Notes under the pieces: model-generated
The model's input: the letters and a program-made list of their open reading frames with translations, nothing else
The model's database searches: none
Told to the model about the DNA's origin: nothing
Shown here: positions 6,673-63,459 of the stretch, piece by piece
Position numbering within the stretch: position 1 is the first letter of the stretch
How the letters are laid out: each line of letters starts with the position of its first letter
NCBI GenBank assembly: GCA_965204745.1
Contig: OZ242010.1
Coordinates: 224,001-288,000, forward strand
DNA length: 64,000 bases
DNA from: Candidatus Latescibacterota bacterium
Lineage (GTDB): Bacteria; Latescibacterota; UBA2968
Direction of reading: 5' to 3'
Translations under genes and position numbers: made by a program

Positions 6673-6877
6673 TCTTGCCTCTTGCCTCTTGCCTCTTGCC
6701 TTTCGCCTCTTGCCTCTCACCTCTTGCCTTTCGCCTCTTGCCTTTCGCCTTTCGCTTCTTGCCTCTTGCCTTTTGCCTCTTGCCTCTTGCCTCTTGCCTC
6801 TTGCCTCTCACCTCTTACTTGTGGATGGGTTGTTGGGCGGGGACTGACTACTGACAACTGACTACTGACAACTGACA
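6673..6877. repeat. degenerate (TTGCCTC)n array followed by TTGGGCGGGG core and (CTGACWA)5
   Basis: Seen directly between convergent genes. Confidence 0.9.
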
Positions 6878-6878
6878 A

Positions 6879-10960: not shown

Positions 10961-11280
10961 CCTCTTGTATCTTCCTCGTAGGCACAGGCGTAGCCTACAA
11001 CGAAGCGTAGCGAGTAACGGGGCCAGGGGGTAGGTTCCACCTCGCAAAACCTATCCCCCCGGCCCCCTTTCCTACAAGGAAAGGGGGAGCACATGGCTTT
11101 CTTAAAGGTTTGTATCCATGGTTGTTCTGATGGCTTTGAGCGAATGGATAATGCCATAGAAACCCAAACCCCGCTCGCGCAAGCCCTCGCAAGACCTATC
11201 GCCATTTCCCCCTTCCTCGTAGGCACAGGCGTAGCCTACAACGAAGCGTAGCGAGTAACGGGGCTAGGGGGTAGGTTCCA
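10961..11280. repeat. composite palindromic repeat block with two copies of a ~70-bp unit (10971-11039, 11212-11280)
   Basis: CTTCCTCGTAGGCACAGGCGTAGCCTACAACGAAGCG... duplicated; same family at 19620-20040, 51595-51850, 56715-57012. Confidence 0.85.
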
Positions 11281-11550: not shown

Positions 11551-14500
11551 TGGAAGTGGGAGGCGGGATAGAGGCTTCGGATGTAGGGTTCAATTTCTTG
11601 AGCGGTCGTGCGCGTGGCAGTTGGCTCGATGACGTTCCCTCTGAGGAGGGCCTCGTTCCGGAAGAAGAGGACATATCGAATGATCAGGATTATATCCGAG
11701 AACAGCCTCACATCGCCATCGCCATCCACATCGAGAATGTTCTGACCGACCAACGTGTCGAGGTAGGGGGTAATGGTTTGCGGGGTCGTGCGCGTGGCAT
11801 CTGGCTCGATGACGTTCCCTCTGACGAGGGCCTCTTCCCGGAAGAAGAGGACGTATCGAATGACCAGGATTATATCCGAGAACAATCTCACCCGGCCATC
11901 GCCATCCACATCCAAGTTGGCACTCGGGGTTTCGTCATCGGTCAGGGTCAGGGTCACGGGTGCGGGTGCGGTGATGCCTTGGGCGTTGTTTGCGGTTGCA
12001 GACACCGTGACCGTCTTCTCGTCTGCCTGGTCGTTGTTGTCCTCTGCGGTGATCGTCACGGTGCCCGTGCTCGTTGTGGTCGTCACCGCGATGATCAGGG
12101 TGTCTGCACTCGATAGCGTGAAGTCGCTCGCAGTCGCAGGGGACACAGGCGTAGCAGAGACCGTGATCGTCGTGATCGCGCTCGATGGATGCGATAGGGT
12201 CGCCGTGATCGTGGAAACCTCGGCGTTTTCCGAGATGGACGAGGGCATCAGCACCAACGTCACGGTCGGCGCATCTTCATCGTCGGTCGTCGTCACTGGA
12301 ACATCCTCATCCGAAAGGGTGTTGTAGTTGGCATCGCCGCTTGACGAGGCGAGTCGCACCGTCCAGGTGACGTTCCCGTCGTCGATGATGTCGTCTTGCC
12401 CGGTCACGGTCACGGTTTGTGCCGTGTTATAGCCTGACGTCGTGAAGGTCAGCATCGCAGGCTCAACCCGCCCCTCGCTCGGGTCTTGGCTCGTCACCGA
12501 AATCGTCACCGCCGCCGTGGGTTGCGTCAGCAGGGCCACCGTGAAGGTCGCCGAGCCACCGGCCTCTGTGGCCTGCCCGGTCACCGCGCTGATGTCCAAG
12601 CCGAAATCGTTATCGCGGTTGACCATGTACACGATGATCGCGGAGAGCGCGTCGTAGTTGGTGTCCTGCGTATCCGTCTGGTTCACCGAAAGGGTGACCG
12701 TATAGTTCTGGTTGCCATCGACGTTGTTGGCGGGGGCATCGTCCTGTCCGGTCACGGTCACGGTTTGTGCCGTGTTCCATGTTGTCGATGAGAAGGTCAG
12801 CACCGAGGGCGATACAGTACCTTCCGTCGTGTCTGAACTGACCACCGAGAGTGCCACATTTCCGGTTGGCTCGGAGGCGAGCGTGACCGTGAAGGTCTCT
12901 GCCCTGCCCGACTCTGTCGTGTGGAGCCTGACCGTCGTCGTGGTCATCGCCGACACCTCAATCGCCGCCTCGTCGTCATCGGTGATCGTCAGCGTCACAG
13001 CCTGCACGGTGCCCGCGCCGTGGTCGTTCTCCACAGCAGCGGTCTGCACCATCACCGCGTTGTCTGATGCGTCTATGTCGTTGTCCACGGCGGTGAGTGC
13101 CACCGTGTCCGTCGCGTTCGCCGTGCTCCCAGCCGCGATGGTGATCGTCGAATCCGACCCTACGGTATAAGCATTCGCCACCGGGCGTACCGTGATCGTT
13201 GTCGCCGCGCTCGATGGGTGTGTCAGCGTCGCGCTCACCGTGCTCACGCCGCCGGCCTCCGAGATGGACGCGGGCGACAGCATTAGTGTCACGTCCGGCG
13301 CGGCGTCATCGTCTGTGATCGTCAAAGCCGTGCCGGTCACACTGCCTGCGCCTTGGTCATTGCTCACCGCAACAGACACGGTCACGTCGCGATTAGGCGC
13401 GTCTTGGGTGTTGTTCACCGCTGTAATGACCACGGTATCCGACGCGTTCGCCGTGCTCCCGGCCGCGATGGTGATCGTCGAATCCGACCCCACCGTGTAA
13501 GCACCGGTCACAGGGCGCACCGTGATCGTCGTTGCCGCGCTCGACTTGTGAGACAGCGTCGCTGTCACCGTCGAAACACCGCCGTTCTCTGCAATCGACG
13601 CGGGCGACAGCGTCAGTGCCACATCCGGCGCGGCCTCATCATCGGTGATCGTCAGCGTCACGTTAGACGATAGCACCGCCCCATTGCCACCTGCCACCGT
13701 TGCAGACACGGTCACGCGCTTGTCCGGTGCATCGGTCGTATCGTTCACCGATGTGATCGTCACGGTGCCCGTGCTCGTCGTCACATTCGCCGCGAAGGTC
13801 AGCGTGGTCGCGGTCGATAGCGTAAAATCGCCCGCAACCGCAGGGGCCACCGCGGTCGCTGAAACCGTGACCGTCGTCGCCATGTTTGTGATGCGATCCA
13901 GCGTCGCCGTGATCGTGGAAACCTGGGCATTCTCCGTAATCGACGAAGGAGTCAAAACCAACGTCACGTTCGGCACGTCGTCATCGGTCAGCGTCAGCGT
14001 CACATCAGTGACCGATCCCGTGCCTACGCTGTTGGTTAGCGTACTCGACACGGTCACCGTCTTGTTCCCCGTAGCATCGGCGTTATCCTCCCCTGTGATC
14101 GTCACGGTGCCCGCGCTCATCGTTTGCCCCGCCGCGACGGTCAGCGTGGGCGGCGTACTCAGCATGTAGTCGGCCGGAACCGCAGGTGACACAGGCGCCA
14201 CTGTCACCGTAATCGTCGTCGGATGGCTCGACGTGTGAGACAGCCTCGCGGTCACGGTCGAGACACCGCCGTTCTCCGTAATTGACCCATCAGACAAAAC
14301 CATCGTCACGTCCGGCGCAGCGTCGTCGTCCGTCAGCATTATAGTGCCGGTCACACTACCCGCGCCTTGGGCGTTGCGCGACACAGCGGATATGGTCACG
14401 GTGCGAGCAAGCTCGTCTCGGGTGTTGTCCAACGTTGTGATGACCACCGTGTCCGACGCGTTTATCGTGTCCCCGGCCGCGATAGTGATCGTCGTATCCG

Positions 14501-20040: not shown

Positions 20041-20470
20041 GGTGGCAGGGCGGCGAGGATGGCCACGCTCATCGCTCTAAAACAAAATGTCAACAGAACC
20101 TCGTTCATGTCTTTGGATGATGGGTTGCGGCTTGCTTCTTACTCGCTTTCTACTCTTAATTCGCATTGTCAGTTGTCAGTCCGCCCCGCCCAATCCCCGT
20201 CGTAGGGGCGATGCCCCCGTGCTCGCCCAAAGATACAAGACGGAGAGGGATTGGGCGGAAAGGGGGCCTGTCCCTACGATTCATTCCTCGCATTTTGGGG
20301 TAGTCGGGCGGCCCTCTTACCTCTCCCGTCTTACTTCTTACCCCCGGGCCGGGCGGCTGGGTGGGGACTGACCACTACCCCAAAAAAAATTTGACTTTTA
20401 GGCGGGAATTGTAATATATTGGCACGCAAACAAATCAACAGTCCCAACCTCACATCAGGAAATGGTACCT

Positions 20471-35773: not shown

Positions 35774-38700
35774 ACGAAAAAAATTGCTTGAGGACTTGCA
35801 GAGCTTTGCTTCGCAAGGAAATGGCGTAATTATCGGCAATCCTGGCGTTGGAAAAACATATCTACTGAAAGAACTTCGCCGAAGCCTAAAGTCCGAAGGA
35901 ACGCCTCATCTCCTTTTGCGGATTGACCAACTCGGTGATGGCACGGACAAAACGTTGCGGCAAGTGTTGTCGTACGAAGGTGATCTGATTGAAAAGTTGA
36001 AGTTCGTTCCCACTTCACACGAGAAATCAATTCTATTGTTTGACGCCTTTGACGCTGCTCGAAATGAACAGACGCGCAAACGCTTTCTGCACCTAATCCA
36101 ACGAGCAATCCATGAACTCAGCGAGTCGTGGAATGTCGTCGTTACGGTACGAACTTACGACGCAATGAAATCGCAAGAACTATTGGATATGTTTGGCAAT
36201 CCTTATGGCACCGATCTACCCCAATACCATAGCAAAGAGATTTTATGCCGACATTTCACAATTCCACCTTTGAATGAAGATGAAATTCAACAAGCCTTTG
36301 ACCAGATTCCGCATCTGGAGTCTATCTACAAATCTGGCTCTCAAGACTTTAAGTGCCTCCTTGCAAATCCATTCAATATCTGGCTATTGAAAAAAATCCT
36401 AAAGACCTCACAGAACATTCCCGATTTTAGTCACATTCATTCTGAAGTCCAATTACTCGGTTTGTTTTGGCAACGACGCATTGAGTCTTCAAGCGATGCA
36501 GATGCCCGTGGGTTTATCCTCACAAAGATCGCACGTCAGATGGTTGAGGAACGTTCACTGACCGTCAGGCAGGAAGACATTTATGAAAACCTACGCCTTG
36601 ACAAAGCAATGAGATGGACAGCATGGAATGGTCTCCTAAGCGATGAGATATTGTCCAAGGTTTCCTCAACAGGACAACGTATTGCTTTTTCTCACAACAT
36701 TCTCTTTGACTATGCAATCAGCGTCTTGCTCATTGAAGACGCCCCCAAAAAACTCGAAGTTTTTGTGCGTGAAGACCCATCGCGTCCGCTCTTTCTCCGC
36801 CCAAGCCTCACATATTTTTTTACTCGCCTCTGGTACTATGATGAGGCTCCTGAAAAATTTTGGAACGCTTTCTGGCATATTTTACCAAGCGATCAATCTG
36901 CACATTTGCGTCTATTTGCACGCTTGATTCCGACGAGTGTTGTCGCAAATGAGGCCCGCAAAATCACGCAGTTGAAACCAATTTTGAAGAAACTAAAGCA
37001 GAGAGAAGAACTCGCAAACGAAGCGACAATGCGGCTTTTGCAATCACTCCGTGCCCTACAGATCGAACGCGACGAACTTTGGATCGGGTTCTTCAACCAG
37101 GTTTCGGCACACTATCACGCCGACTTTGCCTGGGATTTGGCAACCCGCACTTCAGATATTCTTGAACGAGCGACAAACACCGATAACACGGCTATCATAG
37201 ACGCTTGTGGACGAGTTGGCCGTCGACTGCTCGGATGGGTATGGCAAGAAAGAGAGACAAGTGGTAATGATTGGTATAATCGGCTTGGTAGTTTTCGGGC
37301 GGTGCCGCTTGTCGCCAAAACGTATGGTACAAATGTCAAAGAATCGCGTCCTCTTCTCGAAAAGGTTCTCGAACTAACAAAAGAAGATAACTTCCCAATA
37401 AATTTTCTCACGCAGTTGGCCAGACATGTTGACAACATTTGGGGTTCTGATCCCGCGTTTGTCGCCTTGACCTATTGCACGGTATTCACACATTCCGAGA
37501 CGGGCGATGCACAGACAAACCTACCCATAAGTAGCCCCCTTTTAACTTTCACAAGCAATCGCCGCCAAGACTACGGCAGTTGTCAATATCTGTTGATAAA
37601 ACATTTCCCCGCCTTTCTTCAGGCAAATCCATTAGTCGCAACGCGAGCGGCGATCCGAAGTCTGATTTTTTTTGTTAAGAAAGAACATATTGACGGATAC
37701 CTCAAAGAAGGTGTGAAGGGTGAAGATTTGATAGAGACATTCGAGTTTCGTGGAAAAGACGCGTACTTTGTGCAAGACAATAGTTGTATATGGGATGAAC
37801 GAGAGTACCGCAATGAACCAATTGAAATTGCGGATAAGTTATTTCAATTCATCGCCGAAACGGCACGGTCAAACGGTTCGCTTCTCGATTCACTGCTCGA
37901 TGTTTTCCGTGATGAAGTGGGAGTCGCTTTTTTTTGGAAACGGCTCTTGAAGACAGCGGCTCAGTTTCCCGATGTTTTCGCACCGCACTTGTTTGAACTT
38001 TGTATAGCGAAACCGATACAAATAGGGGGCGATGCCCTTCATGAGCTCGGTCTATTTTTAGAAGCGGTTGCCTCTAAGTTTACGCCCGAACAACTGCGCC
38101 GGATTGAAGAGACCATTTTGGGACTTCCTTCGGAAGCAACGAGCGAAGATGACGCCAAAATCTTTGAACGACGGAGAAATCGGCTCATATCAAGGATATC
38201 GAGTGACTTGCTTCAAACGCGAGACGCCAAAGAGATCAAAAAAGAAATGGAGCGAACGGATCGAGTGCCCCCAAACGAGCCTTTATTCAGCTACAAATCT
38301 TGGTCAGAACCCTATACTGAAGAAAAGTGGCTTCGAGATCAAGGTGTTGACACCGCCACGCCGGAAAATCAAGAATTACAATGCTTTTTCGGGCCTCTCG
38401 ATAAATTCAGATTAGAGTGGTTAAATAAAATACCAACAGAGGAAGCCACCGAGTTGATTTTACCGCCATTACAGGAGGCATACGCCACCGTAAATGAAAA
38501 TAATAAAGCGACGAAAAAGATAATTGATTCTCTTTGGTATAAGTTGACTGCTTGCGTTGCAGTCCTCGGCCGAGTTACTAACCTTGAGAGCAAATGGTTC
38601 TCTTTTTGCCGTCAAGTGCTTCTACAAGCTGCAAAACATGAACTGCCCAAGCTAGATACAAGCGATGTTCAATCCGATACTCCTATGTATTCCCCATTTC

Positions 38701-43981: not shown

Positions 43982-44045
43982 GGGTCAGTTGTCAGTTGTC
44001 GGTTGTCGGTTGTCAGTCCACCCCGCCCATGCCCCAAATGGCCCT

Positions 44046-48009: not shown

Positions 48010-48403
48010 AGAGCGCGGTCTGTGACCTGTGACCCCGCCCAACTCCCTTCGGTAAGACGTAAGACGGGAGAGGGGAGGCAACCCCGCCACAGCCTACCCC
48101 TTCGGCAAGAGGGGAGACGTAAGACGTAAGATGTAGGGGCGATGCCCCGTGCTCGCCCGAAGATACAAGAGGGGAGAAGACAACTGCGCTATTCCGATCA
48201 AGGGATCAAGTAGGGTCAGCCTCCATCTCCAAGCCCCGTAGGGATGGCTCTTGTGCCTGTCCTCGTACCCAGCGATGAGGGCGACCACCCAGCGGTCGAT
48301 AGCCAATCTTTGGGGCAGGGCTTGCAGAACGGGCAAAAATGCGTTACATTCAAAGGCAAGCGTCCAATGCCTGTCGTAACTTTAAACCAAAAGGAGAAGC
48401 ACG

Positions 48404-55300: not shown

Positions 55301-56466
55301 CGGTGGACAATACCCAAGACGCGCCTAATCGCGACGTGACCGTGACCGTTGTATCAGACAACGACCAGGGCAGTGTGGTCCTCCCGACCGAGATAACGAT
55401 CATCGATGATGACGCGCCGCCGAGGCTCTCGATCAGTTCGCCGAGTGCGGTTGAGGGCACTGCCCTGACGTTCACCGTTAGATTGAATGCAGTGAGCGAC
55501 AAGGCGGTGACGGTGGCGTATGCAGACGCGGGCACGGGCACCGCGACTTCGGGTACCGATTACACCGCACTTACCGCAGGGACCCTGACCTTTGCGGCAG
55601 GCGTGACCAGCCAGACCATCGCTGTTTCTGTGACCGGCGACACGGATAATGAGCAGAACGAGACCGTGATCGTGACGCTGAGCAGTGCGACCAATGCGAC
55701 CATAAGCACGGCGCAAGGCACAGGGACGATTATCGATGACGATGGCATGCCTGCGCTGAGTATCGGTTCGCCCAGCGTGATTGAAGGCGCGACCGGCGCG
55801 ACCCTGACCTTTCAGGTGTACCTACGCCCAGCGCACACGGCACAAGTGACGGTGGCGTATGCAGACGCGGGCACGGGCACCGCGACTTCGGGAACCGATT
55901 ACACCGCGCTTACCGCAGGGACCCTGACCTTCGCGGCGAGCGATACCATCCAGACCATCCCTGTTTCTGTGACCGACGACTCGGATGATGAGCAGAACGA
56001 GACCGTGATCGTGACGCTGAGCAGTGCGACCAATGCGACCATAAGCACGGCGCAAGGCACAGGGACGATTATCGATGACGAAACCCCGAGTGCCAACTTG
56101 GATGTGGATGGCGATGGCCGGGTGAGATTGTTCTCGGATATAATCTTGGTCATTCGATACGTCCTCTTCTTCCGGAACGAGGCCCTCCTCAGAGGGAACG
56201 TCATCGAGCCAACTGCCACGCGCACGACCGCTCAAGACATTGAACCCTACCTCGACACGTTGGTCAATCAGAACATTCTCGATGTGGATGGCGATGGCGA
56301 TGTGAGGCTGTTCTCGGATATAATCCTGATCATTCGATACGTCCTCTTCTTCCGGAACGAGGCCCTCCTCAGAGGGAACGTCATCGAGCAAAATGCTACG
56401 CGCACGACCGCTCAAGCCATTGAACCCTACATTCGAAGCCTCTATCCCGCCTCCCACTTCCAATGA
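52232..56466 (+). pseudogene. paralogous surface protein (2 GLUG modules, FN3-like, Calx-beta, DVDGDG domain), frameshifted by GGTAC duplication at 52397-52406
   Basis: Signal-peptide frame stops at 52411; removing 5 bp rejoins it to the 52426-56466 ORF and restores alignment with locus A. Confidence 0.85.
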
Positions 56467-59536: not shown

Positions 59537-60629
59537 GCCAGAACATCCCGCGTAGGCGATGGGATTCATCGCGCAGTGCCATGAGTGCGTCCTCGTCCAT
59601 GTCCACGCCCAAGCCCGGTTCGGTGGGCAGTTCGATAAAGCCATCTCGAAACGCCAAGGGGGTGTGGAACAAGCCTTCCCCGCGGTTGTGCCCGCCCTCG
59701 CAGATCAGCAGATTGGGAACGGTCGCCATCACATGGACGGAGGCGGCCACGCCCACCGGCCCCGCGGCATTGTGTGGGGCAATCGCCATGTTGTGGATTT
59801 CGGCCATGCCCGCGATCTTTTTCATTTCCAGCATGCCCCCGCAATGGCGAATGTCGGGTTGCAAAATCGCGCACATTTCCCGCTCGATGAGTTCGCGGAA
59901 CCCCCAGCGCGTCAAGTGCCGTTCGCCCGTGGCAATGGGCACGGTGGTGCTTCGGGACAGGGCCAACAATGCCTCGTTGTTCTCGGGGTGGCACGGCTCT
60001 TCGGCAAACAGCGGGCGCAGTGGCTCTAATTCTTTGACGAGGATGGCGGCCATCGCGGGACTCAAGCGGCGGTGCAAATCGACCGCGATGTCGATGCCAT
60101 CGCCCACGGCATCGCGCACGGCGGCAACGCGGGACACCATGAAGTCGATGGTTTTGGGCGTATCCACAAATCGCACGGGACCGGGCGACGCCCCCATTTT
60201 GACAGCGCGAAAACCAGCGGCGACTTTTCGACATGCGTTTTCCGCACACTCCTCGGGCGTCGTCCCGCCGATGCCGGTGTACACGCGGATGCGGTCGCGC
60301 ACTTTTCCGCCTAGCAATTTCCACACGGGCATGCGGACCCATTTGCCAAATACGTCCCACATTGCCATTTCTATGCCACTGAGCGCGCCGAGCAAGATCG
60401 GCATGCTGCGGCTGTAACTCGACCGGTACATCGCCTGCCAGTGATCCTCGATGTTCAACGGGTCTTTGCCGACCAGATAGGCGGCCATGTCCTCTACGGC
60501 CCGCGCCACCACGCGCCCGTGCTCGTAATTCATCGGCTCGCCATATCCGACCAGGCCTTCATCCGTGAACATTTTCAAAATCATCGCCCGCCCACGAATG
60601 GGGATGGTCTCGAATTTTGTGATTTTCAT
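59505..60629 (-). CDS. dgoD: mandelate racemase/galactonate dehydratase-like enzyme
   Basis: SGIEMAMWD, VDLH, EEP, ATGER, QPD, APHN. Confidence 0.8.
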   Translation of the reverse strand: MKITKFETIPIRGRAMILKMFTDEGLVGYGEPMNYEHGRVVARAVEDMAAYLVGKDPLNIEDHWQAMYRSSYSRSMPILLGALSGIEMAMWDVFGKWVRMPVWKLLGGKVRDRIRVYTGIGGTTPEECAENACRKVAAGFRAVKMGASPGPVRFVDTPKTIDFMVSRVAAVRDAVGDGIDIAVDLHRRLSPAMAAILVKELEPLRPLFAEEPCHPENNEALLALSRSTTVPIATGERHLTRWGFRELIEREMCAILQPDIRHCGGMLEMKKIAGMAEIHNMAIAPHNAAGPVGVAASVHVMATVPNLLICEGGHNRGEGLFHTPLAFRDGFIELPTEPGLGVDMDEDALMALRDESHRLRGMFWHEDDGAFADY

Positions 60630-60640
60630 GGTTGGAATCC

Positions 60641-60745
60641 TTGTCAGTTGTCAGTTGTCAGTTGTCAGTTGTCAGTTGTCAGTTGTCAGTTGTCAGTTGT
60701 CAGTTGTCAGTTGTCAGTTGTCAGTTGTCAGTTGTCAGTTGTCAG
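60641..60745. repeat. (TTGTCAG)15
   Basis: Perfect array. Confidence 0.97.
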
Positions 60746-60770
60746 TCCGCCCCGCCCAACCGCCCTTCGG

Positions 60771-61078
60771 TAAGACGTAAGACGTAAGACGTAAGACGTA
60801 AGACGTAAGACGTAAGACGTAAGACGTAAGACGTAAGACGTAAGACGTAAGACGTAAGACGTAAGACGTAAGACGTAAGACGTAAGACGTAAGACGGGAG
60901 ACGTAAGACGGGAGACGTAAGACGTAAGACGTAAGACGGGAGACGTAAGACGGGAGACGTAAGACGTAAGACGGGAGACGTAAGACGGGAGACGTAAGAC
61001 GTAAGACGTAAGACGTAAGACGGGAGACGTAAGACGGGAGACGTAAGACGTAAGACGGGAGACGTAAGACGGGAGACG
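60771..61078. repeat. 44-unit heptamer array of TAAGACG and GGAGACG
   Basis: Counted directly. Confidence 0.97.
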
Positions 61079-61139
61079 ACCACCCAACCCCCTTCGCTTT
61101 TCGCCTTTCCCCTCTTGTATCTTGGAAGTAAGGGTTAAT

Positions 61140-61315
61140 TAGGAGTTGCGCCCTCGTATCGAGATAAGCCATCTTGATGCCCGGCTCGGGGAAGGCCGGC
61201 CCCTCTTGAAGGCGATGACCTTGTAGGTAAGATAGGCCCCCCGACCGCCGGGTCTATGCCGAAGAGTATCTAAGTCCCTTGAGGCTGCATATACAAGACC
61301 GGTAGACTTGGCGTC
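61140..61315 (+). ncRNA. predicted bridge RNA
   Basis: Guide matches to donor (AGAGTATCT 61263-61271) and target (AGGTAAGATA 61225-61234); closing stem 61246-61256/61303-61313; ends approximate. Confidence 0.75.
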
Positions 61316-61380
61316 AATGGTCGGGATCGAACTCGAGCGCACACCAGACCCCTTACAACCCCTCATCACAGGAGGCCCCC

Positions 61381-62388
61381 ATGTCGAAATCTCAACCCGC
61401 TTTCGCCGGCATTGATGTCAGTGCCCGCACGTTGTCTGTTGCCCTGTCCAGACCCGGACAAGCTGTCATGCAAGCGACCTTTGCCAATGATCCCCAAGCC
61501 CATAAGCGGTTGCTGAAGTGGCTCACCAAGGGCGGGCACATGGTCTCTGTGTGCCTCGAAGCGACCGGGCTTTACAGCTTGGGGGTGGCCTTGGCCTTGC
61601 ATCGGCATCGCCACACAAAGGTCATGGTCGTCAATCCCAAAGCGATGAGCAAGTACGGTCAAGCCCGCATGCAACGAGCCAAGACGGATGCGAAGGATGC
61701 GTTGTTGATCATGGATTATGCCGAGCGCATGCCGTTTGTGCCTTGGCAAGCGCCGAGTGAGCAACGGCTTCAACTGCAAGCCCTCACCAGACGCATTGAC
61801 CAACTCAAGCAGGTGATCATCAGTGAACAGAGCCGCAACCACGCGCAAAGCTACCACATCCTGAGCACACGGCGCATCGCACGCGATATTCAGGTGAATA
61901 TTCGACACCTCAAACGCCGGATTGCATACTTGGAAGACCAAGCCCTCGATCTCGTTTTGCACGATGAGACCCTCAAGCGCGCCTACCAACGCCTCTGCTC
62001 GACGCCTGGCATCGCACAAACGAGCGCCTTGCGGCTCTTGGCCGAGTTGACCCTTTTGCCTGAGGAGATGCAACCGCCCCAGTGGGTCGCACATGCAGGC
62101 CTGGATCCCAAACCCAAACAATCCGGAACCGCCAACCCACAAAGACGCATCTCGAAAACCGGGAATAAGTACCTCCGCCATGCCCTCTATATGCCTGCCT
62201 GGGTGGCCATCAGACACGAAGTCCATGTCAAAGCCTTCTATGACCAACTCATTGCCCGCGGCAAGAAACCTTTGCAGGCTATCGTTGCGGTGATGCGAAA
62301 GTTGCTCCATTCAATCTGGGGCATGTTGCGGCATGACCAAGATTTTGAGGGCGAGAAATTCTATCGAATCGCCCCGCAATCCCCTTGA
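61381..62388 (+). CDS. IS110 DEDD recombinase
   Basis: GIDVS, CLEATG, KTDAKDA, QSG, AVMRKL. Confidence 0.95.
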   Translation: MSKSQPAFAGIDVSARTLSVALSRPGQAVMQATFANDPQAHKRLLKWLTKGGHMVSVCLEATGLYSLGVALALHRHRHTKVMVVNPKAMSKYGQARMQRAKTDAKDALLIMDYAERMPFVPWQAPSEQRLQLQALTRRIDQLKQVIISEQSRNHAQSYHILSTRRIARDIQVNIRHLKRRIAYLEDQALDLVLHDETLKRAYQRLCSTPGIAQTSALRLLAELTLLPEEMQPPQWVAHAGLDPKPKQSGTANPQRRISKTGNKYLRHALYMPAWVAIRHEVHVKAFYDQLIARGKKPLQAIVAVMRKLLHSIWGMLRHDQDFEGEKFYRIAPQSP

Positions 62389-62439
62389 CCTTTAAGAGAG
62401 TATCTTACCTCTTGCCTCTTACCTCTTACCTCTTGCCTC

Positions 62440-63459
62440 TTACCTCTCACCTCTCCCGCTGTACTGCCGCTTGTAATATTCCCGATACCCCGCGCTGTTC
62501 CGAATTTTTCGCCACCAGTCTTCGTTGTTCAGATACCATTCCACGGTGAGGCGCAGGGCGTCTTCAAAATTGTACTTGGGCTTCCAACCCAGGGCCGCGA
62601 TTTTGGACGTATTCAGAGAATACCGCATGTCGTGGCCGGGGCGGTCGGTCACATGTTGGATGAGGTCTTGGGGCTTTTCTAGATACGCGAGAATTTTTTG
62701 CGCGACGGACAGGCCATCGGCTTCATTTTCCCCGCCCACATTATAGGCTTGGCCCGGCGTGCCCTCGTGAAGTGCCAGATCAATCGCCGCGCAGTGATCG
62801 GTCACGTACAGGTGATCTCGAACAGCCGTGCCCGCGCCGTACACGGGCAAGGGCATGTGGTCTAGGGCATTGGTGATGTAAATGGGCACGCGCTTTTCGG
62901 GATATTGAAATGGACCGATGTTATTCGCGGATCGCGTGATCACCACGGGCAGGCCGTACGTGATGGCAAATGCCCGCGCCATCATATCGCCGGACGCTTT
63001 TGCCACAGCGTAGGGATTGCGCGGCGCAATCGGGGCTTCTTCTGTCCATGGCTCCTCGCCTTCCGCCAACGCCCCATAGACCTCATCGGTGCTCACTTGC
63101 AAAAACCGCTCAACGCCACACGCACGCGCGGCGGCGAGCAGGGTGTACACCCCCAGCGCGTTGGTTTTCATAAACGCCTCGGCGCCCATAATGCTGCGAT
63201 CCACATGGCTTTCCGCCGCGAAATTCACCACGAGGTCAACCCGCTGCATCACCGCGTTCACCAACTCGGCATCGCAAATATCCCCATGCACAAATTCATA
63301 GCGGGGATCGTCCGCAATATCCAACACGTTGTCCAGATTGCCCGCGTACGTCAACTTGTCCAAATTGATGACGCGATAATCGCGGTACGCCTGGAGCATG
63401 TGCCGCGCAAAATGACTGCCAATAAACCCGGCACCACCGGTAATGAGAATGGTTTTCAT
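62440..63459 (-). CDS. rfbB: dTDP-glucose 4,6-dehydratase
   Basis: GGAGFIGS, AAESHVDRS, VSTDEVYG, DRPGHD. Confidence 0.95.
   Translation of the reverse strand: MKTILITGGAGFIGSHFARHMLQAYRDYRVINLDKLTYAGNLDNVLDIADDPRYEFVHGDICDAELVNAVMQRVDLVVNFAAESHVDRSIMGAEAFMKTNALGVYTLLAAARACGVERFLQVSTDEVYGALAEGEEPWTEEAPIAPRNPYAVAKASGDMMARAFAITYGLPVVITRSANNIGPFQYPEKRVPIYITNALDHMPLPVYGAGTAVRDHLYVTDHCAAIDLALHEGTPGQAYNVGGENEADGLSVAQKILAYLEKPQDLIQHVTDRPGHDMRYSLNTSKIAALGWKPKYNFEDALRLTVEWYLNNEDWWRKIRNSAGYREYYKRQYSGRGER

Follow-up and report, generated by a model that had tools for sequence, protein, structure and literature searches.

An IS110-family insertion sequence with a predicted IS621-type bridge RNA aimed at the tandem heptamer arrays of its Latescibacterota host

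Insertion sequences (IS) of the IS1111 group possess RNA-guided DEDD recombinases of the same superfamily as those of the IS110 group and operate with a seekRNA that is encoded downstream of the gene; they also carry subterminal inverted repeats. In the element described here, an IS110-family IS at positions 61116-62405 (+) of a 64,000-nt stretch of a Candidatus Latescibacterota genome (GenBank assembly GCA_965204745.1, contig OZ242010.1, positions 224,001 to 288,000 of the forward strand; hereafter the window), the RNA is predicted to lie upstream of the gene, as in the IS110 group. For IS621 of Escherichia coli, the accessible text of two reports describes a bridge RNA whose left target guide (LTG) and left donor guide (LDG) have the letters of the top strand of the left half plus the core, and whose right target guide (RTG) and right donor guide (RDG) are the reverse complement of the core plus the right half (PMC11208160); handshake bases pair with donor positions 6-7 after strand exchange (PMC11208158), and the joining of the two ends upon excision recreates a sigma-70 promoter (PMC11208160). 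Taken together, the present data make it very probable that the window element is an active-looking IS110 insertion sequence that works like IS621 and is aimed at the heptamer arrays of its host. The mechanism is already known and the novelty therefore modest; the element itself is new to the IS621-type bridge-RNA family. Its features, including two predicted loops, the target-binding loop (TBL) and the donor-binding loop (DBL), are as follows.

61109-61115 (+): left target half with core, CCCCT-CT; the flanks of 52 copies diverge upstream, and the core CT is 61114-61115
61116-61120 (+): right donor half, TGTAT; invariant in 51 of 52 copies and complementary to the RDG
61118-61123 (+): -10-like TATCTT, a candidate by sequence, 2 nt after the core
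61153-61163 (+): small hairpin CUCG-UAU-CGAG, holding CTCGTATC, in the 5' part of the left end and outside the conserved two-loop structure
61187-61243 (+): predicted TBL, closed by a stem of 61187-61197 and 61235-61243 around an inner hairpin (61209-61212 and 61219-61222)
61200-61206 (+): predicted LTG, CCCCUCU, in the same sense as the left target half (LT) plus core
61225-61231 (+): predicted RTG, AGGUAAG, reverse complement of CT-TACCT
61232-61233 (+): AU, the predicted handshake guide of the TBL, able to pair with donor positions 6-7 (AT in AGAGTAT)
61247-61312 (+): predicted DBL, closed by a stem of 61247-61261 and 61300-61312 around an inner hairpin (61273-61276 and 61283-61286)
61263-61271 (+): predicted LDG, AGAGUAUCU (DNA AGAGTATCT), identical to AGAGTAT-CT at 62397-62405
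61291-61297 (+): predicted RDG, AUACAAG, exact reverse complement of CT-TGTAT at 61114-61120
61370-61375 (+): putative ribosome-binding site AGGAGG, 5 nt before the ATG
61381-62388 (+): IS110-family recombinase, 335 aa, with Pfam and PDB-chain matches
62385-62390 (+): right-end -35-like hexamer TTGACC, ending 15 nt ahead of the last core base
62397-62405 (+): left donor half AGAGTAT with core CT (62404-62405); junction identical in 52 of 52 copies
62406-62410 (+): right target half (RT) TACCT, the first bases of the right flank
62403-62454 (+): host heptamer array TCTTACC/TCTTGCC, the place of insertion (Tandem Repeats Finder: period 7, 7.4 copies)

The likeness to IS621, as far as the accessible text of the two reports describes that system (PMC11208160, PMC11208158), extends from the protein to single letters of the donor. 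Both recombinases have the same two Pfam domains with the D/E/D/D/S residues conserved. In IS621, and by prediction here, the RNA comes from the left end, upstream of the gene, and forms two stem-closed internal loops with an inner hairpin in each. The LTG and LDG are sense and the RTG and RDG antisense, each of the four pairings takes in the CT core, the RTG is followed by an AU handshake, a -35 box (putative here) lies in the right end, and the donor letters dA6, dT7, core dC8-dT9, dT10 and dT12 are the same. However, IS621 targets the repetitive extragenic palindromic (REP) element site ATCAGGCCTAC, whereas the target here is a 12-bp site in tandem heptamer arrays; the RTG has 5+2 bases here and 2+2 (extendable) in IS621, and the RDG is contiguous over seven bases here, whereas nine RNA bases pair discontiguously with seven in IS621. 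The two proteins are distant (hmmer E = 1.9e-36 over the whole length), and the present host is an uncultured Latescibacterota-like genome in which the system is predicted. The closest relative with a solved structure is ISCro4 (PDB 9t56; E = 7.9e-41, residues 7-332; see also the accessible part of a related preprint, 10.1101/2025.05.14.653916), a comparison that concerns the proteins only. A similar habit is described in the accessible text on ISPpu9 and ISPpu10 of Pseudomonas putida (PMC12288879, 10.64898/2026.03.19.712850), which are likewise IS110 elements that multiply in an abundant, conserved intergenic host repeat, but there the repeat consists of dispersed palindromic REP units, in contrast to the head-to-tail 7-nt array with in-phase sites found here. 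Literature searches returned no publication linking bridge RNA with heptamers or Latescibacter with IS110, although the supplementary tables of PMC11208160, with thousands of predictions, may include the element; searches on IS110, heptanucleotides and cyanobacteria likewise returned nothing on such an element.

The element measures 1290 bp including the right-hand copy of the core, and its host genome consists of one contig of 5.48 Mb (56.5% G+C). A blastn search of the element against this genome gave 74 matches, 52 of them full length (1288-1294 bp); truncated copies are also present. By clustering, eight copies, among them that of the window, are 100% identical over 1290 bp, 37 further copies share 99.92% mean pairwise identity and are 96.4% identical to the eight-copy group, and seven divergent copies comprise one group of three (~88% identity) and four singletons. 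All 57 matches to PF01548 in the genome fall in copies or fragments of this one element (coordinates compared by eye). The non-coding left end spans 265 nt, from 61116 to the ATG at 61381, and the reading frames are open. The recombinase matches PF01548 (E = 4.6e-23, residues 9-151) and PF02371 (E = 6.6e-20, residues 203-287), both beyond the curated cut-offs, and the PDB chains of ISCro4 (7.9e-41) and IS621 (1.9e-36) match across its whole length. In a phmmer alignment to IS621 chain 8wt6_A (chain numbering +2), residues D12, E60, D103, D106 and S248 stand at the catalytic positions, which the accessible text on IS621 gives as D11, E60, D102, D105 and S241 (PMC11208158).

The register of the element follows from its copies. 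With the left junctions of the 52 full-length copies aligned, TGTATCTTGG starts the element and is invariant in 51, the remaining copy having a 1-nt insertion; CT directly precedes it, and the five bases before this CT vary (CCCCT, TACCT, TCCCT, CGCCT or CACCT) and track the LTG. At the right junctions AGAGAGTAT-CT is identical in 52 of 52 copies and is followed mostly by TACCT or TGCCT, such that the CT core stands at both junctions of every copy and the flanks share one 12-bp motif. Because the flanks vary up to the CT and TGTATCTTGG is conserved, the left core is placed at 61114-61115 and TGTATCT is part of the element. This gives CCCCT-CT-TACCT as the true target and AGAGTAT-CT-TGTAT as the donor junction.

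The predicted guides agree with these junctions. The LTG is identical to the seven flank bases in 45 of the 52 copies, and the RT reads TACCT or TGCCT (a U:G wobble) in 42 of the 45 copies that have the RTG AGGUAAG. One variant copy shows a single difference in the LDG. The handshake sequence AGAU is invariant in all 17 left ends aligned; on the donor side, the A at 61298, directly after the RDG, can pair with target position 7 (T), and a relative with C at this target position carries G in place of that A. The DBL handshake is partial, with the first of its two positions pairing and the second not.

A common structure for the RNA is suggested by an alignment of 17 left ends, composed of six variants from this genome, eight sequences from two metagenome-assembled genome (MAG) records and three distant ones. 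Their RNAalifold consensus consists of two stem-closed loops, each with an inner hairpin, and the four guides lie in unpaired parts. Over the 36 consensus pairs, which were predicted from the same alignment that was used for the counts, 94.4% of cells are standard pairs, a value reached by none of 500 shuffles (89.0% in shuffles); two-sided changes are seen in 15 pairs, against 4.8 in shuffles, and again 0 of 500 shuffles reach 15. When pairing partners were slid by 1-3 columns as a control, pairing fell to 27-50%. In the DBL, two-sided changes affect 7 of the 13 pairs of the closing stem and all four pairs of the inner hairpin. An 11-bp stem closing around the donor guides had been proposed earlier from the sequence; the stem exists, but comprises 13 pairs with a bulge (61247-61261 with 61300-61312). 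An Rfam scan of 60500-63000 (E <= 1) matched no bridge-RNA family, and its sole match, a sub-threshold microRNA model, is spurious and lies on a TTGTCAG array.

Within the genome, guides and flanks agree at every one of the 7+7 bases in 23 of the 52 copies, and a further 19 differ at one RT position: 17 have TGCCT, one has TACTT (wobble in both cases, U:G and G:T) and one a true mismatch. With G:U pairs allowed, guides and flanks pair fully in 43 copies. The informative copies are the seven with other predicted guides, as these changed guides are found at correspondingly changed sites. The copy at 1297030 combines an LTG TCCCTCT and an RTG AGGTGAG with the site TCCCT-CT-CACCT. Five ~88% copies have the LTG CGCCTCT or TGCCTCT and the RTG AAGTAAG; their left flanks read CGCCT (three copies), CACCT (one) and TACCT (one), and their right flanks TACTT (four) and TACCT (one). 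These five, at genome positions 216658, 288661, 1307058, 2197878 and 3989008, have flanks that are alike over a longer stretch, ...GGGGCGGTCTCGCCTCT on the left and TACTTCTTGCCTCTTACTTGGGGATAGGGCTTGCGG on the right, and thus appear to sit in copies of one further repeat. The other 51 copies, whose flanks had been proposed as a check on the window copy, all lie in the same kind of target.

The same correspondence was sought in relatives, for which a scan of one genome per species gave 29 loci. Seven loci of one Latescibacterota MAG chromosome (~80% amino-acid identity) have the predicted LTG TCCYCCT and RTG AGAAAAG beside the flanks xCCYC-CT and TTTCT, with 0, 1 or 2 LT mismatches in three, three and one loci and 0 or 1 RT mismatches in six and one. 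In another Latescibacterota record (77% identity), 18 loci with the LTG CGCCTCT and the RTG AGGGAG lie in (CTCGCCT)n-type arrays, followed mostly by CCCGT, with 0 or 1 LT mismatches in 12 and six loci. Farther away, the LT half is exact in L056 (59% identity) and the RT half in L058 (Gemmatimonadota, 48%), and in L057 (Gammaproteobacteria, 51%) the right side is fully paired, with two LT mismatches. Five more lineages came from a phylum-wide protein search and were read by eye, leaving out L070 and L072, which have the other orientation. Among these, L069, L078/L082 and L071 have an RTG that is exactly reverse-complementary to core plus RT, L066 pairs there with the help of two G:U, and L067 shows a single mismatch; on the left, LTG and flank are identical in L066 and L078, differ at one base in L067, L069 and L071, and differ at two or more in L082. 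No left end was recognised by eye in the partial match L073. In L078/L082, from a distant relative in a genome of the same order, the left junction (read by eye) is ...AT-TGTATC, the right junction has CT and the LTG ends in AT, and the two copies of the core may therefore differ. Close relatives of the recombinase (E <= 1e-60) occur in 11 of 168 genomes of the phylum and in three of 21 of the genus. In sum, predicted guides and flanks change together in this genome, in two genomes of the same genus and in no fewer than seven other lineages whose targets are unrelated.

Two adjacent CCTCTYR heptamers make up the 12-bp target, in which the guide would read CC/CCTCT/TA/CCT, that is, the two variable dinucleotides of neighbouring units. 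The genome holds 615 arrays of at least three C[CGT]TCT[TC][ACG] units, totalling 24.3 kb, and because the host carries hundreds of CCTCTYR arrays there are many landing sites for the element. Flanks with at least two adjoining heptamer units are found to the left of 28 copies and to the right of 36; 16 copies have them on both sides and 48 of 52 on at least one side. For the 45 copies with the main guide, the perfect site CCCCTCTTACCT is occupied 20 times and empty five times (80%), whereas the wobble site CCCCTCTTGCCT is occupied 17 times and empty 65 times (21%), an odds ratio of 15 (Fisher p = 1.2e-7). Perfectly matching sites are thus nearly filled by the element. Among the 21 genomes of the genus, a three-unit CCTCTYR pattern is found 625 times here and 296 times in one other IS-bearing genome, whose element also reads heptamers of this kind; it is absent from the third IS-bearing genome, where the element has a different aim, and has 0-4 matches in the remaining 18. 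The elements of the same-genus genomes with and without arrays resemble those of the two MAG records named above, the array-targeted and the other one, respectively. However, the three IS-bearing genomes are mutual nearest relatives (92% and 89% identity in one gene, as against 86% and ~81% in the rest), so that these co-occurrences of IS and arrays represent few independent events. Two IS copies of different subgroups stand head to tail at 1121571-1124187 (L007) with a single heptamer, TACCTCT, between them; the second copy landed on the unit beside the right end of the first.

These data allow a model of transposition to be proposed. Upon excision as a circle, TTGACC of the right end and TATCTT of the left end would come to lie 17 nt apart, and this joined-end promoter would drive a bridge RNA of ~180 nt from the left end. 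In its first loop, the LTG CCCCUCU would pair with the bottom strand of CCCCT-CT and the RTG AGGUAAG with the top strand of CT-TACCT; in the second loop, the LDG AGAGUAUCU and the RDG AUACAAG would pair with the element's own joined ends, AGAGTAT-CT-TGTAT. The DEDD/Ser recombinase would then exchange strands at the CT core, as suggested by its homology. The 17-nt spacer is that of the predicted circle junction, and all variants of this genome and all relatives read by eye have TTGAnn at 15-16 nt from the core end; a sigma-70 scan of the resident left end gave no site-like match upstream of the predicted RNA. Contigs from four DNA runs compared with 61079-62900 are fragmented, with IS parts at ~10-100 times the depth of the flanks. 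One contig of one metagenome run joins 61244, the end of the TBL, to 62383, the last 22 nt of the element, and may represent an internally deleted mini-derivative; being single, of depth 11 and with a shorter side of 30 nt, it is too weak to use.

Several observations weigh against this interpretation. The single-sequence fold of 61116-61345 is no better than shuffles (z = -0.18), and support for the structure is therefore comparative only, with 14 of the 17 aligned sequences coming from three related genomes. Nine of the 52 copies lie at imperfect sites: four at TACCT-CT-TACCT (two LT mismatches), two with CCCGT on the right (three RT mismatches), one at TGCCC, a member of the ~88% group at TACCT and a hybrid-looking copy with mismatches left and right. 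RTG pairing in the relative with 18 loci extends to five of six bases in 16 of them and to four in two, and the LTG of the window element has 5+2 bases, as against 7+2 in the accessible description of IS621. The bridge RNA, its ends and the junction promoter are all predicted, and a circle junction was found neither in the genome (0 matches) nor in the contigs of the four DNA runs. No orthologous empty site was found among the 21 same-genus genomes; the right-flank gene is present in all 21, but because its neighbourhood is not syntenic there is no empty site to compare, and the same applies to the module at 48161 described below.

An earlier, sequence-only reading of the window had recognised an IS110 element with a readable IS621-type bridge RNA, with which the guides, the two loops and the Pfam domains agree, but had set it in another register: a start at 61123, the target CTTGTAT-CT-TACCT, the donor AGAGTAT-CT-TGGAA and CTCGTATC and ATACAAGA as guides. 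TGTATCT was thereby placed in the host, because the second CT (61121-61122) was taken as the core. In favour of that register, the strings it quoted are present where it located them, including CTTGTATCT at 61114-61122 and AGAGTATCTTACCT at 62397-62410, AGGTAAGATA complements TATCTTACCT at 10 of 10 positions, and TGTATCT, being 7 nt long, leaves the flanks in heptamer phase whichever register is chosen. Its right target half, TACCT, and left donor, AGAGTAT-CT, hold, as does AGAGTATCT (61263-61271) as an exact left donor guide. However, the real target lacks TTGTAT, the right donor half is TGTAT and the left boundary lies 7 nt off, given that TGTATCTTGG is invariant in 51 of 52 copies and that it is the five bases before CT-TGTAT that vary, in step with 61200-61206. 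The latter guide, CCCCTCT, was missed, and CTCGTATC (61153-61160) was named in its place; this string belongs to the small hairpin, whose loop base differs in variants, and it changes in variants and relatives with no change of flank. Its 7/8 match is at chance level, with ~0.1-0.2 such matches expected in 260 nt on two strands. ATACAAGA (61291-61298) had been called a partial right donor guide, whereas its ATACAAG is the exact reverse complement of CT-TGTAT in the corrected register only. That AGGTAAGATA (61225-61234) complements the right junction was correctly seen, as it consists of the RTG, the 2-nt handshake guide and one further base, and its 10/10 match is explained by handshake pairing with the last bases of the donor, as the accessible text on IS621 describes (PMC11208158). 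The aim at a heptamer array was also rightly proposed, but not its TCTTGTA unit, for which two units in tandem have 0 matches in the genome. Because the predicted site CTTGTATCTTACCT occurs once in 5.48 Mb, against 70 unoccupied occurrences of the corrected site CCCCTCTT[AG]CCT, because TCTTGTA is never tandem, and because relatives in other phyla begin with the same TGTATCTT beside unrelated flanks, we exclude this register as almost certainly wrong.

With the corrected register in place, it could still be that site choice is set by the protein or by the structure of the repeat DNA, and that the guides resemble the target by descent or chance. The bridge RNA is, after all, predicted from sequence only, the nine imperfect sites would be accommodated, and some donor-target resemblance is expected since both are T/C-rich and heptamer-like. 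This explanation is nevertheless very improbable, as guide and flank change jointly at several positions and across genomes, the guides lie in loops of a structure kept by compensatory changes, and the homologue IS621 works experimentally via these pairings, according to the accessible text on it (PMC11208160, PMC11208158). It is likewise only a slim possibility that the window copy is an inert relic of a family that spread in the past and whose RNA or recombinase no longer functions: truncated copies exist and the circle junction is missing from the genome and from the contigs of the four runs, yet the eight copies without a single difference over 1290 bp, the 37 more at 99.92%, the open frames, the intact catalytic residues and the exact match of guides and ends all speak against it.

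Further sequences in the genome resemble the left junction of the element. CTTGTATCT occurs 231 times, of which about 50 are IS left junctions, and most others start a hairpin module. The unoccupied left-half matches listed by the sequence-only reading are indeed present (CTTGTATCT at 10964-10972 (+), 20231-20239 (-) and 48161-48169 (-)), but they are not empty targets: those at 20231 and 48161 belong to the hairpin module and that at 10964 is the start of a third module. An unlisted fourth match, at 38654-38662 (-), lies in no recognised module and is no empty target. The genome has 89 copies of the hairpin module, TGTATCTT[CT]GGGCGAGCACGGGGGCATCGCCCCTAC; CT precedes 81 of these, and the first 8 nt of the module are those of the IS left end. 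Counts of the module start (TGTATCTTYGG...) are 92, 106 and 205 in the three genomes of the genus that have the IS, against 0-3 in each of the remaining 18. Insertion of the module via the target loop of the element is unsupported: no more than 16 of the 89 copies have CCCCT before the CT, and of the nine LDG positions only four are matched by the 3' ends of the module (...CAT-CT); it therefore cannot be claimed that the element moves this module. In total, ~180 further CT-TGTATCT sites, mostly hairpin-module starts, mimic the IS left junction in having a pyrimidine-rich flank, CT and the right donor half. That the bridge system acts beyond its own copies, these sites being non-autonomous passengers or half-match substrates, is an unlikely but conceivable extension; passengers of this kind in IS110 recombination are not known to us from any report. 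A 2026 preprint, in its accessible part, reports recombination of substrates that match one half of the IS621 bridge RNA. If this extension were true, the lineage would offer a natural example of small modules spreading, and of rearrangements arising, through a bridge RNA.

The intergenic regions of this genome look like mosaics of few modules. A version of the hairpin module with a compensatory stem (GGACAGGC...GCCTGTCC) is seen in the flanks of L044, L053 and L054. A second module, CCTTTGAACTGGCTGTCGCCAGTTGTACCCC and then (CCTTTTGTG)n, often follows the hairpin (for example at genome 296778 and at 436752 (-)) and ends in GTGGCTAAA(ATCC/CTTC)CAT-CT before heptamers; 105 such ends were counted. 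The third module, at window 10964-10972 (+), begins CT-TGTATCTTCCTCGTAGGCACAGGCGTAGCCTAC... and has ~15 copies by its first 12 bases, and GTAGGC...GCCTAC hairpins like it occur in the flanks of the relatives L031, L032, L034 and L043. The window contains further tandem repeats, found with Tandem Repeats Finder; all but those of the last line are heptamer arrays.

60770-61078 (-): long GTCTTAC/GTCTCCC heptamer array left of the element, a CGTCTYR variant of the family to which the targeted array belongs, inverted, and not the target of the window copy
2091-2132, 6843-6878, 43984-44017 and 60641-60746: CTGACAA/ACTGACT/ACTGACC heptamer arrays, untargeted by the IS
13100-13716 (period 330) and 56101-56430 (period 180): two long tandem repeats of ~1.9 copies each, unrelated to the element

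The second heptamer family, CTGACH, is found in 15 of the 21 genomes of the genus, including genomes without the IS, and its three-unit pattern has 1216 matches here and 0 in the other array-bearing genome. Because this family exists in genomes lacking the IS, arrays form without it, and the idea that the recombinase creates the heptamer arrays is rejected. The CTGACH-family arrays resemble the TAACTGA direct repeats that are reported from Beggiatoaceae and cyanobacteria in the accessible text of PMC4679880.

The element leaves the known mechanism unchanged, but offers a natural bridge-RNA system that is fully readable (target, donor, four guides and handshake) in an uncultured lineage far from E. 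coli, with a compact recombinase and short (5+2) predicted guides that can be compared with IS621 and ISCro4. One genome here provides a natural 'reprogramming' series of three predicted guide sets, each at its cognate site, and among the 21 genomes of the genus the aim of the guides matches the repeat content of the host. The near-saturation of perfect sites (20 of 25 occupied, as against 17 of 82 wobble sites) and the reading of two variable dinucleotides in adjacent units suggest that a bridge RNA may be tuned to a tandem 7-nt array.

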